From assembly GCA_963845085.1 (NCBI GenBank), contig CAWJQI010000001.1, positions 192,001-256,000 of the forward strand: a stretch of 64,000 nucleotides of DNA, read 5' to 3'. How positions within the stretch are numbered: the first letter of the stretch is position 1; each line of letters opens with the position of its first letter. This document shows, piece by piece, positions 41,306 through 56,889 of this stretch. A program made the translations under genes and the position numbers. The notes under the pieces are model-generated. The model saw only the letters and a list, made by a program, of their open reading frames with translations. It was not told the origin of the DNA and searched no databases. Source of the DNA: Candidatus Fermentibacterota bacterium. GTDB taxonomy: Bacteria; Fermentibacterota; Fermentibacteria; Fermentibacterales; JCC-6.

Positions 41306-41686
41306 CTAGTTGAAATCCTGCCAGGACGCGACGCCGTTGTCTATCTGCCCATGGCTTGGCGCAGCCTGGGGGCAGGTGATGGTGAAGCTTGCGGAAGGGT
41401 CGAGGTAAAGCGCAACGACTGCTATGGTGTGCGGCGTGTTGCAGCCCGGGCACACGATCCCCTCGATGTTGAGTTCGGAAAGCTGATCCGAGTAGATGCC
41501 GGTCCTGGCGAAGTAGATCACTTCCTGGCTCGCTATCGTGCGCATGTTGGCGCGGCAGGCGTTCCTCTTCGCAGCCTCGGAAACATTGTTGAACTTCGGG
41601 ATCGCAATGGCGGCAAGGATCCCGATTATCACCACCACGATCATCAGCTCGATGAGCGTGAAACCTTTTCCGGCAACATTTTTCAC
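41306..41686 (-). CDS. pilA: Type IV pilin (downstream paralogue)
   Basis: Class III signal KG/FTLIELMIVVVIIGILAAIAIP; GTG 41686 after AGGAGG. Confidence 0.92.
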   Translation of the reverse strand: MKNVAGKGFTLIELMIVVVIIGILAAIAIPKFNNVSEAAKRNACRANMRTIASQEVIYFARTGIYSDQLSELNIEGIVCPGCNTPHTIAVVALYLDPSASFTITCPQAAPSHGQIDNGVASWQDFN

Positions 41687-41720
41687 AAGCCCTCCTTCCG
41701 TGCCCCTTTCACGGAATAAG

Positions 41721-54300: not shown

Positions 54301-56889
54301 TTCTCAACGGTCGACAGAATGCCGTCGCCGTTCGTGTCCTCCGTGTCCAGTTCGCCGTTCGCCTCCATCTCGGTGCCGCTTCCCACCCTGACCGGCCAGT
54401 ACGAGTCCTCGTCCATGCGCTCGCCGAGATCTATGTAGAGCGAACCCTGCTGTGCGGAGTCGGTAGCCCGGACGTACAGCGTGATGTGGGTGCGCGTGGA
54501 GAAGTCCACACCGTAGCGGTCTATGCAGCGCATGATGCCGCCCCAGGATTCGGTGGCGCTCTCGTCCGGCTGGAAGTAGAGCTGCATTACGCTCGCGTCT
54601 TCCGAGGCGTTGGTCCCGGTGAGTCCCGGCACGATGTCTCCGATATGCCAGCGATGGGGCCAGTTCCACCAGCGGAGCCTTCCCGTCCCCTGTTCGCCGC
54701 CCGATACTGGAAGGGATGCGTGGGACCACGCAATCCTGCTCTGACCAAGAGGGTAGGTGGACTGGCTTCCCTCCATGTCGTCGATGTATGCCACCCTTCC
54801 ACCGCCCGGCATGCTGACCGCCATCTCGCCCGACAGCTGGATGATGCTTTCCGCCTCGGTCCTTACAAGGGGCAGCGCATTCACTGCGTCGGTCAGGAAC
54901 TCGGGCCTCACCTCGTAGTGGGCGTCGAGGTCCATCACCAGGGTGTTGTAGGCCTCCTCACCCGCAGCGGGCCTGTCCTCGGGGGTCGAGGCGCTCTCGT
55001 ACATCAATGTGGCGCCGACCCAGGAGAGCCTTCCCATCTGGTACTTCAGCCTTGTCCCGAAGAGGGATTTCGACATCTGGGCGAAGAAGGGAAGGTACTC
55101 GAAGGTTACCCTCAGCGTGTTCGCGGGGTCCTGTGCAAGCTGGGCGGCCTCGCCCATGAGCGAGAGAAGGCCGATCTCGTAGATGATGGTGTAGTCCTGG
55201 TCACGAACCAGGTCCTGCGCCACGCCGGCGACAGTCAGCGTAACGCGCTCGCTGCCCGGAACTATGCCCATCCTGCCCAGGGAGTACGTTGTGCTCGCGG
55301 CCCTGAAGCTGACCCTCATGTAGTACTTGCTCAGGTTCGTCGGCGGGTTTTTCTCGGTGTAGACCTCGGGGTTCTGCACATCGAGCACATCGCTGGTGAA
55401 GGGTCTGTTGTCCGGGAAGACTATGAACCCGTTGTCCCAGTCCATCGTTTCGGTCTCGTCTATCATGGAACCATCGCCGTTGCTGTCCAGCCCCAGAACG
55501 CTGAGGAAGGGAACGCCGTCCTGGCTTGAAGTGGGCTCCTGGCCGGGCAGCTCAAGAAAGATGTCGCAGTTGAAGCTCTCCCGCACTATGTTGTTTGCCC
55601 CCAAGATAATAGCGGTTCCTCAGCATGTACTGCCAGGTCGGGTCGCTCACTGTCGGGTTCGAGTTCTTCACGAGCAGCAGGTCGACATCGTAGTTCGCCG
55701 GATCAGTGACATAGGTGCCCAGGGTGTCGCCCGAGAACGTTACCGCGAAAACGGCTATCATGTCGTTGGTGCTCACCGGGTTCACGAAGCGTATCGTGGT
55801 GGAGTCCTCAATGACGTAGTCCTGGTCGGGTCCCTCGTTGAGAAGGTCCCATGAGCCCGTTCCGGTCAGGTCGCCGCCGCCCGGCTGCGGCACGTGCCAG
55901 TCGCCCGGTATGGAGAGCGGGTTTTCCACGCCGTCGTCACGGAAGACCTTTATGTAGGCGATAAGCGGAGCCTGCACCGTATCGGGCACCACGCCGAAGA
56001 AGTAGTTCTCCGCGGGGCGGATGTCGAGGATGGAGTCGGTCACCATGGTTGCCTGCCCGACGAAATCCGCGGATTCGGTTGAACTGGCCTGCTTGCTCGC
56101 GATCGTGGTGATCTCGAGTGGACCTACCTGGGCTTCGACCTTGGCCCCGAACAGCCCCTGGCCGGGGATGCTGTAGCTCACGAACTCGGGGCCAGTGATG
56201 GCGAGGTTCACGTCACCCATCTCGATCGAGCGGATCACCTCGTCGTCGAAACCGGTGTACCTGAGACTGACATTGTAATCCGGCTCCATCGTCCTGCGGG
56301 TGTCGTGGTCGACCTGAACGTTGATCTTCTCGCCGATGGTCCCGTCGAGGTTTATCACCAGTTCCTGTTCCATCTTGAGGTCCGGGAAATACGATGGGGT
56401 TACGCCCTCGCTGCTGACCTGGTTGGGGCGGATGTGGCTGATCCCGGAAATGGTGATCTTCTGATGGCCGCTGATGTCGAGCTGGCCGCCCTCTCCTATG
56501 ATCCCGGCGATTCCCGGGGGCATGGCGAAAGGCAGGTAGATGGTTGGCACGAGCCTGCCCGTCTCGTGGGATGACCTGATGGCGCTCGAGCTGTTGGTGA
56601 GAAGCCATCTCTTCCAGGTGGACCACTCCGTGATGCCGGCCTTTGAATCGGGAAGGAGCCAGACCCTCGACAGGGATACGGGCCGGCCCATGTACATGAG
56701 GCGGTAGGCAAGGCCGAGCCCCGACAGGGCGGGAGAGACAACGACGGTGGCCTGGGGAAGGGTGTAGAGCGTGGGCAATGAATCCTGATAGAAGACGTTG
56801 GGAGGCCCCGATGGCAACCACGGCAGCGAAACGCCGATGCCAAGGGCCGTCATGGGGATCAACAGGAGAACGAGCGTTGAATGCTTCAT
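51312..56889 (-). CDS. sprA: SprA/Sov-like giant outer-membrane beta-barrel (T9SS translocon homologue), about 1858 aa, frameshifted at 55598-55602
   Basis: Signal peptide MKHSTLVLLLIPMTALG. SprA-type blocks LDGTIGEKINV, YTGFDDEVIRSIEMG, GLFGAK, IVPGSERV..DYTIIY, AYIDDMEGS, WGGIMR, LYIDLG..ED, DTEDLNRNG, NYYELEVPL, EVWIDDITL, amphipathic strands and terminal Phe. The two ORFs join as RNRYYLGANNIV by deleting one base in a 5-G run. Confidence 0.82.

Follow-up and report, generated by a model that had tools for sequence, protein, structure and literature searches.

The stretch of DNA analysed here, referred to as the window, comprises 64,000 nucleotides of a Candidatus Fermentibacterota bacterium (assembly GCA_963845085.1, contig CAWJQI010000001.1, forward-strand positions 192,001 to 256,000), and coordinates given below without a contig refer to it. 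The genome, G000, is 88% complete, and C1, C4 and C5 denote contigs of it. The nearest named relatives of its proteins belong to Fermentibacteria, Sabulitectum and Aegiribacteria. The window carries sprA, the gene for the translocon of the T9SS (type IX secretion system), followed on the same strand by a type IVa pilus gene cluster in the order pilB-pilB-pilT-pilC-pilS-pilR-pilA-pilA. The original prediction, made from the window alone, had described a SprA-like gene of about 1858 codons lying co-directionally some 120 nucleotides upstream of these pil genes. This arrangement was confirmed, the spacer being 121 nucleotides, and the gene order was recovered in both the list of open reading frames (ORFs) and the family scans.

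The sprA gene and its neighbours

Two minus-strand ORFs match the SprA model TIGR04189, one at 55552-56967 (101 bits) and the other at 51312-55604 (352 bits, with a cut-off of 200). Reading from the ATG at 56889 to the stop at 51312 and omitting one extra base yields a protein of 1858 amino acid residues (aa). Comparison with the whole orthologue in the related genome G004, which scores 469 bits against the same cut-off, places the break at a single inserted base in a C5 homopolymer run at about 55598-55603, and a low-depth contig of sequencing run X2, a single contig, spans the site with one gap. The split is probably an error of the assembly. In those relatives of the same order that have the whole gene, sprA is a single open frame, mostly of 1864-1925 aa. 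TIGR04189 was matched above its cut-off in 35/35 genomes of the order that were searched, G000 included, with coverage in the relatives from profile position 93 to about 2318. When a 40-row SprA profile was compared with the PDB, SprA alone was matched (6h3i, E 9e-244, chain residues 41-2054); the identity to the solved protein is 15-19%.

The last 960 residues were modelled with AlphaFold from a 95-row alignment, which gave a predicted local distance difference test score (pLDDT) of 84.8 and a predicted template modelling score (pTM) of 0.57. The model contains a cap domain and then 25 consecutive long barrel strands. The best four Foldseek matches to it were SprA entries (E 1e-38 to 1e-30), and a VIA comparison with residues 1258-2401 of 8gl8 aligned 788 residues with a Z of 21.3 and a root mean square deviation (rmsd) of 11.2 Å. 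In the N-terminal half, inspection of an alignment with the Parabacteroides SprA by eye gave 11 further candidate strands, most of which were also flagged by a score for hydrophobic alternation. The protein is thus likely a 36-strand barrel, with 25 strands modelled and 11 read from the alignment. The two cap inserts of SprA occupy positions reportedly given by Lauber in 2018, and on these we take the first modelled strand to be strand 12. With that numbering, the model places a long helical loop between strand 24 and strand 25. The SprA of Flavobacterium johnsoniae has an exposed loop between the same two strands, according to PMC10994853.

Since TIGR04189 is matched above its cut-off and the model of the C-terminal half takes the fold of known SprA structures, the product of 51312..56889 is a true SprA, shorter than its counterparts and outside the Bacteroidota, as the original prediction had supposed. 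It is homologous over its full length to F. johnsoniae SprA (PDB 6H3I, 6H3J, 8GL6, 8GL8) and to Porphyromonas gingivalis Sov. It is about 550 aa shorter, a loss spread over numerous loops as small deletions; a single larger one removes about 100 aa when compared with the Parabacteroides protein. SprA outside the Bacteroidota was already known: PMC12611786 treats it as specific to the Fibrobacteres-Chlorobi-Bacteroidetes (FCB) group, present beyond Bacteroidota and tabulated across phyla. PMC4793230 reports the T9SS as detected only in Bacteroidetes.

On its other side sprA stands head to head with lptF-lptG, and the two may share a common divergent promoter region. The same layout is found in the order, in genomes G036 and G038, and in 7/80 loci of other phyla. 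At the G036 locus (L082, G036:C3:15-53 kb), lptFG-sprA is followed by an M28 peptidase gene, genes for two FGE-domain-type proteins and two PorV-like genes; a receptor-less exbB-exbD-exbD-tonB set lies 17 kb further on, and no pil genes lie within 9.4 kb.

The features of the locus are collected in Table 1. In Myxococcus and Geobacter the type IVa locus runs pilB-pilT-pilC-pilS-pilR-pilA, and pilMNOPQ forms a separate operon. The pilus genes of G000 share with that type their gene order, the sigma54 motifs before the pilin genes, and PilB, PilT and PilQ matches above cut-off, and the best matches of PilC and the pilins are to Myxococcus-type models. They differ in having two pilB and two pilA genes; in the operon outside the window, pilM and pilN share one frame and PilP was not recognised. 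The N-terminus of pilB1 carries an MshE-type cyclic di-GMP motif (NF053729, 67 bits, above cut-off). In relatives, a sigma54 motif precedes 7/10 pilin starts. A strong terminator-like hairpin with a T-run (41770-41792) follows pilA1 and separates the two pilin genes. The two genes may be expressed separately because this hairpin lies between them and each has a sigma54 motif of its own. Beyond the pilins and convergent with them, 39383-41293 encodes a membrane protein of 636 aa. Its match to the LIC_10190 family is weak, and the gene is kept at this place in several relatives; the product could be a pilin-modifying glycosyltransferase.

Table 1. Genes and sequence elements of the sprA-pil locus in window coordinates.
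Feature	Coordinates	Strand	Basis and remarks
lptF-lptG, conserved neighbour, head to head with sprA	57029..59457	+	PF03739, TIGR04407/04408, synteny
sprA, type IX secretion translocon	51312..56889	-	TIGR04189, PF14349; 1858 aa read through one extra base; predicted 36-strand barrel
Sigma70-like promoter element TTGACT-16-CAGAAT (candidate), sprA-pilB spacer	51257..51284	-	Similar element in 23/33 spacers
pilB1, type IVa assembly ATPase	49424..51190	-	TIGR02538, 682 bits, above cut-off
pilB2, second PilB paralogue	47627..49415	-	One frameshift near 48340; whole 595-aa orthologue in G004
pilT, retraction ATPase	46530..47627	-	TIGR01420, 476 bits, above cut-off
pilC, platform protein	45312..46524	-	Four pieces in the assembly; NF052606 pieces; whole 403-aa orthologue in G004
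pilS-like sensor kinase	43688..45259	-	PAS, HisKA, HATPase_c; named by position and domains
pilR-like sigma54 response regulator	42333..43695	-	Response_reg, Sigma54_activat, HTH_8; frameshift near 43190
Sigma54 -24/-12 motif upstream of pilA1	42237..42251	-	Motif scan
pilA1, major-type pilin	41813..42184	-	N_methyl, TIGR02532
Sigma54 motif of pilA2	~41722-41736	-	Motif scan
pilA2, pilin paralogue	41306..41686	-	Probable GTG start at 41686; family matches

Type IX partners, cargo and candidate motors

The rest of the genome was examined for the partners and cargo of SprA. The type A C-terminal domain (CTD) model TIGR04183 has 87 matches in G000, 80 of them above cut-off and 86/87 ending within 25 aa of the stop codon, and every one of 60 sprA-bearing genomes encodes CTDs, from 15 to at least 80 per genome. 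Four PorV-family genes score above the family cut-off of NF033709; the best reaches 158 bits on the PorV equivalog model NF033710, below its cut-off of 250. Directly upstream of this best porV a PorU-like protein of 1230 aa is encoded, with a C25 peptidase domain and a CTD. Peptidase C25 (gingipain-family) matches number 17 in the 2.45 Mb of G000, and several of these have CTDs. With F. johnsoniae and P. gingivalis the system shares the fold of the C-terminal half of SprA, PorV-family carriers, type A CTD cargo and a PorU-like gene adjoining porV. The suggestion of non-canonical cargo tails did not survive, as the tails are of the canonical type A, and neither did that of a minimal exporter, given the PorV family, the PorU-like gene and the C25 peptidases on the outer-membrane side.

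The operon of porU and porV (C4:77-92 kb) also contains, on the minus strand, a gene for a 1034-aa protein (G000:C4:78140-81244; L089:2140-5244), which in Fermentibacterota is followed by a POTRA/BamA-like gene. It shares with SprA the segment at profile positions 598-651 of TIGR04189, and hhalign aligned it with SprA over 107 columns (probability 97) that lead out of the cap insert to a barrel strand. An eye count of the predicted model (pLDDT 81.8, pTM 0.63) gives a barrel of some 36-38 long strands, and its inserts are small. Fold searches with it returned generic barrels only (Z up to 16.4), SprA standing at Foldseek rank 18, and no Pfam family was matched. The gene was found in 51/60 sprA-bearing genomes and 0/4 outgroup genomes without sprA, and named relatives occur in Krumholzibacteria and Rubricoccus. 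Sequence comparison and modelling thus point to a second, SprA-related giant barrel within the porU-porV operon, which appears to be new here and sets the system apart from the T9SS of Bacteroidota.

The Bacteroidota system also has the Gld motor, for which profile searches were run in sets of genomes that include G027 (one contig, 96% complete) and that together cover about 80-90 sprA-bearing genomes for GldK, GldL, GldM and GldN. GldM was matched in 0/41 and 0/51 genomes and GldN in 0/80. GldK gave 0/80 above cut-off and partial FGE-type matches in 7, spanning only about profile positions 210-407. GldL gave 0/5 above cut-off and one weak match, containing a stop, in G038. DUF6089, which we take to be PorG, was found in 0/5 genomes. 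No control was matched in the searches for GldK, GldM, GldN or DUF6089. The sole Bacteroidota sprA record found among plasmids, NZ_OY725768.1, gave no gldK, gldL or gldM match and so provided no positive control, and the absences are therefore to be read as non-detections. In that sense the statement that GldKLMN is missing, made for the window, extends to the whole genome. Nor did whole-genome searches place a match to a secretin, PorV, a CTD or Gld inside the window, of which positions 1-36000 had no separate family scan. Two further features distinguish the locus from its Bacteroidota counterparts: no GldK, GldL, GldM, GldN or DUF6089 was detected, and the neighbours of sprA are lptFG and a pilus locus.

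Proton-driven motors of other kinds were considered as energisers. MotA/ExbB genes were found in 80/80 genomes, and G000 has three. The first belongs to a Tol-Pal-type locus. The second (C5:823.7-838.9 kb, L088) lies in an operon that resembles the ExbB-ExbD-TonB (Ton) motor, with exbB-exbD-exbD-tonB behind the gene of a TonB-dependent receptor, and that differs from the usual Ton arrangement in running on into genes for a PorV-family barrel and two GWxTD proteins, which stand between the genes of two CTD proteins, and then into one for a lipoprotein. The operon order is kept in 14/14 order relatives examined, and one WOR-3 genome (L210) retains part of it. Several small WOR-3-type genomes have just one MotA/ExbB gene, and it belongs to the exbB-exbD-exbD-tonB type. 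The Ton motor has a conventional job in serving TonB-dependent receptors. Genomes with this motor and no receptor were sought among those bearing sprA and none was found, plug domains being present in 60/60, so that the comparison does not discriminate. Nonetheless, the Ton motor is the only candidate that is both universal in the sample and physically linked to type IX parts.

The third gene (C5:443.2-453.0 kb, L191:5226-15015) lies in a locus for a 1460-aa TPR protein, a small protein, exbB, exbD, exbD and a 621-aa TonB_C protein, which we take to resemble the myxobacterial Agl-Glt core cluster. We rejected it as a general energiser. Its distribution was judged from MotA/ExbB counts, with no direct search: in 14/80 genomes just one MotA/ExbB match was found, and the single-copy loci with enough flanking sequence, six in all, are of the exbB-exbD type with tonB or exbD and are not TPR-linked.

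The pilus genes as neighbours of sprA

The type IVa components PilB, PilT, PilC, class III signal pilins, PilM, PilN, PilO and PilQ were all found in G000. About 57 kb from sprA, at C1:305.6-311.6 kb (L037:9570-15629), pilQ (TIGR02515, 297 bits, above cut-off) is grouped with pilM (TIGR01175, 258 bits), pilN (PF05137) and pilO (PF04350). Their order is pilM and pilN in one 614-aa frame (a putative fusion), a 163-aa ORF, pilO, a 497-aa ORF and pilQ; PilQ carries an AMIN domain and the adjoining 497-aa ORF has no family. PilP was not recognised among the ORFs of this operon, in which two unassigned ones flank pilO, and no genome-wide search for it was made. One product of a minor-pilin cluster at C5:59.0-67.1 kb is a protein of 1339 aa whose N-terminus is prepilin-like. 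The remark that no secretin was in view thus holds for the window and not for the genome.

Within the order, pilB follows sprA in 33/33 relatives with downstream DNA (32 loci and G025); G028 has a 2-kb insert, and G001 stops at a contig edge. Where the pilB start was located (25/32 order loci), the spacer measures 86-269 nucleotides. Outside the order, loci were found by a scan with two short motifs, and the sample is biased to WOR-3/TA06-type phyla. Among the 58 of 80 such loci with at least 3 kb downstream, mostly from WOR-3/TA06-type genomes, pilB lies within 3.5 kb downstream of sprA in 3 and comEA in 27; a hand count restricted to loci with a complete sprA end found pilB following in 3/54. 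Downstream pilB genes were seen in G038, L090 (TA06), L112 (Edwardsbacteria) and L163, with comEA in between and, in two of the four, an M28 peptidase gene as well. In G038 too comEA follows sprA; it is not at that position in 32/32 order loci. Because these four sit on different deep branches of the SprA tree, the block lptGF-sprA-(M28-comEA)-pilB-pilT-pilC is taken to be ancient. The adjacency is therefore old and no one-off, and it is broken in most WOR-3-type genomes.

Conservation of this kind says little by itself, since lptFG, serC and ligA are conserved near sprA about as well as pilB within the order. A sigma70-like element occurs in the first 100 nucleotides of the sprA-pilB spacer in 23/33 genomes, as against 1.55 expected from shuffles, whereas coding controls gave 0/33 and the opposite strand 1/33. 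The 33 spacers come from kin and are not independent, but the element is present in two families whose spacer sequences differ. A promoter of its own, lying in the spacer, probably serves pilB, which speaks against the proposed co-regulation of sprA with the pilus.

Four metagenome-assembled genomes (MAGs), G044, G055, G083 and G087, have sprA, and no PF00437 ATPase, PilT or PilC was found in them. No secretin was found in three, and G044 has a partial match. Their sprA frames are full-length, encoding 1748-1848 aa, and their CTD counts are at least 80, 16, at least 80 and 32, respectively. They fall on four separate branches of the SprA tree. The trees, made with FastTree, are unrooted with long branches, and their use was limited to placing the genomes that lack a pilus.

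A full GldKLMN motor, a separate pilMNOPQ operon and a non-conserved adjacency had together been named as the outcome that would overturn the original prediction. What we found is divided: a separate pilMNOQ operon exists and the adjacency is not universal, but no GldKLMN was detected.

Energisation of export and evolutionary order

We consider it likely that the genome encodes a Gld-less type IX system in which SprA exports about 80 tagged proteins, and that the pil genes are old neighbours and not the engine. The pilus is set aside as the power source because it has its own pilMNOQ operon, a promoter-like element precedes pilB, the adjacency is rare in other phyla, and sprA persists in MAGs without a pilus motor. 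By analogy with Bacteroidota, cargo would cross the inner membrane via Sec, its CTD would bind the PorV loops in the SprA cavity, the PorV-cargo complex would leave SprA through the lateral opening, and the PorU-like C25 protease would cut off the tail. The pil genes downstream likely specify an ordinary type IVa pilus and are probably transcribed from their own spacer promoter, with the pilins under PilS/PilR and sigma54.

In Bacteroidota the step that needs energy is the one at which SprA lets go of the carrier-cargo complex (PMC10994853), and PMC12635249 describes PorG as disulfide-linked to a moving GldKN track. Here, we tentatively put forward a proton-driven ExbB-ExbD-ExbD-TonB motor as the putative source of force for release. 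A motor-free ratchet and an unrecognised motor are somewhat less favoured, each to the same degree, and we regard the pilus as an improbable driver of this step.

Several observations weigh against this account. The Gld searches lacked a working positive control, so that a diverged motor is possible, and the SprA barrel model is partial (pTM 0.57, rmsd about 11 Å to SprA). The PorU-like protein, at 290 bits and E 3e-86 on NF033707, falls below the cut-off of 420. The adjacency of sprA and pilB is unbroken within the order; 10/33 spacers have no promoter-like element, and since a terminator scan found none in the sprA-pilB spacer, read-through from sprA into pilB is possible. PilT was found above cut-off in 47/52 sprA genomes and a secretin in 75/80, and the four pilus-less genomes are MAGs and may be incomplete. 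As for the Ton motor, TonB-dependent receptors occur in 60/60 genomes and one heads the operon with the CTD and PorV-family genes, while most WOR-3-type exbB loci have no PorV-family gene within the stretch examined.

Among the alternatives, a working partnership, in which sprA shares transcription or regulation with the pil genes because SprA exports surface adhesins or nucleases that serve together with the pilus in attachment or DNA uptake, is unlikely although it survives best. The shared strand, the short spacers, the lack of a detected terminator and the comEA genes behind sprA in other phyla and in G038 would all suit it, but the promoter-like element inside the unit is conserved, comEA does not hold that position in the order, and ordinary neighbours are conserved about equally there. 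Slightly less likely still, a pilus, or a pseudopilus built with the extra PilB paralogue, might drive cargo out of SprA in place of GldLM. The adjacency in the order and in the four deep-branching loci, the two or three pilB copies at sprA-pilB loci, and the frequency of PilT and secretin in genomes where the Gld motor went undetected are consistent with such an engine. They are outweighed by the PilQ/PilMNO operon and minor-pilin cluster elsewhere, the element before pilB, the 55/58 loci of other phyla without adjacency, and the four MAGs that combine sprA and many CTDs with no PilB, PilT or PilC.

We also doubt that a full type IX energy chain of the conventional kind is present and too diverged for the GldK, GldL, GldM and GldN profiles. 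The unmatched controls for GldM, GldN and DUF6089, the low identity of SprA to the solved protein and the FGE-domain proteins of G000 that match part of GldK would allow it. However, the SprA, PorV, PorU and CTD profiles, drawn from the same Bacteroidota system, detect their homologues strongly, and in many sprA genomes not even a loose threshold yields a GldK candidate, the GldK-like matches being confined to the one segment of the profile. That the locus is decaying, with sprA, pilB2, pilT, pilC and pilR as real pseudogenes, is very improbable: there are at least 7 frame breaks in 16 kb, but the one in sprA is a single base at a homopolymer run, the genes broken here, among them pilB2, pilT, pilC and pilR, are whole in G004 at 75-98% identity, low-depth contigs of other samples carry opposite indels at several of the break sites, and frameshifts hit unrelated genes of the same assembly too. 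The breaks across the locus, including the early stop in pilT at 46572, are probably assembly errors.

The Gld-less type IX system with old pilus neighbours therefore stands as our preferred reading. A full-text literature search, which misses most subscription papers, found no description of a motor-less state or of a link between sprA and pil genes. The most striking option raised by the locus, a pilus-powered exporter, is the part that failed to hold up. Throughout this lineage the pore, the carriers and a sortase-like gene are retained, along with roughly 30 to at least 80 tagged cargo proteins in each genome, while neither motor nor track could be detected. If the motor-less state is real, type IX export would run on another energy source or on none, or the evolutionary order would need revision. 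PMC12635249 infers that the T9SS arose as a part of the machinery for gliding. It is conceivable, though we hold this only loosely, that the module of SprA, PorV, PorU and CTD, with the second barrel included, predates the gliding energy chain of Bacteroidota, and that in Fermentibacterota, WOR-3, TA06 and Edwardsbacteria it draws on another power source, most plausibly of the Ton type, to export proteins by the dozens to hundreds. On that view GldLM and GldKN would have been grafted on later, which turns the published inference around.

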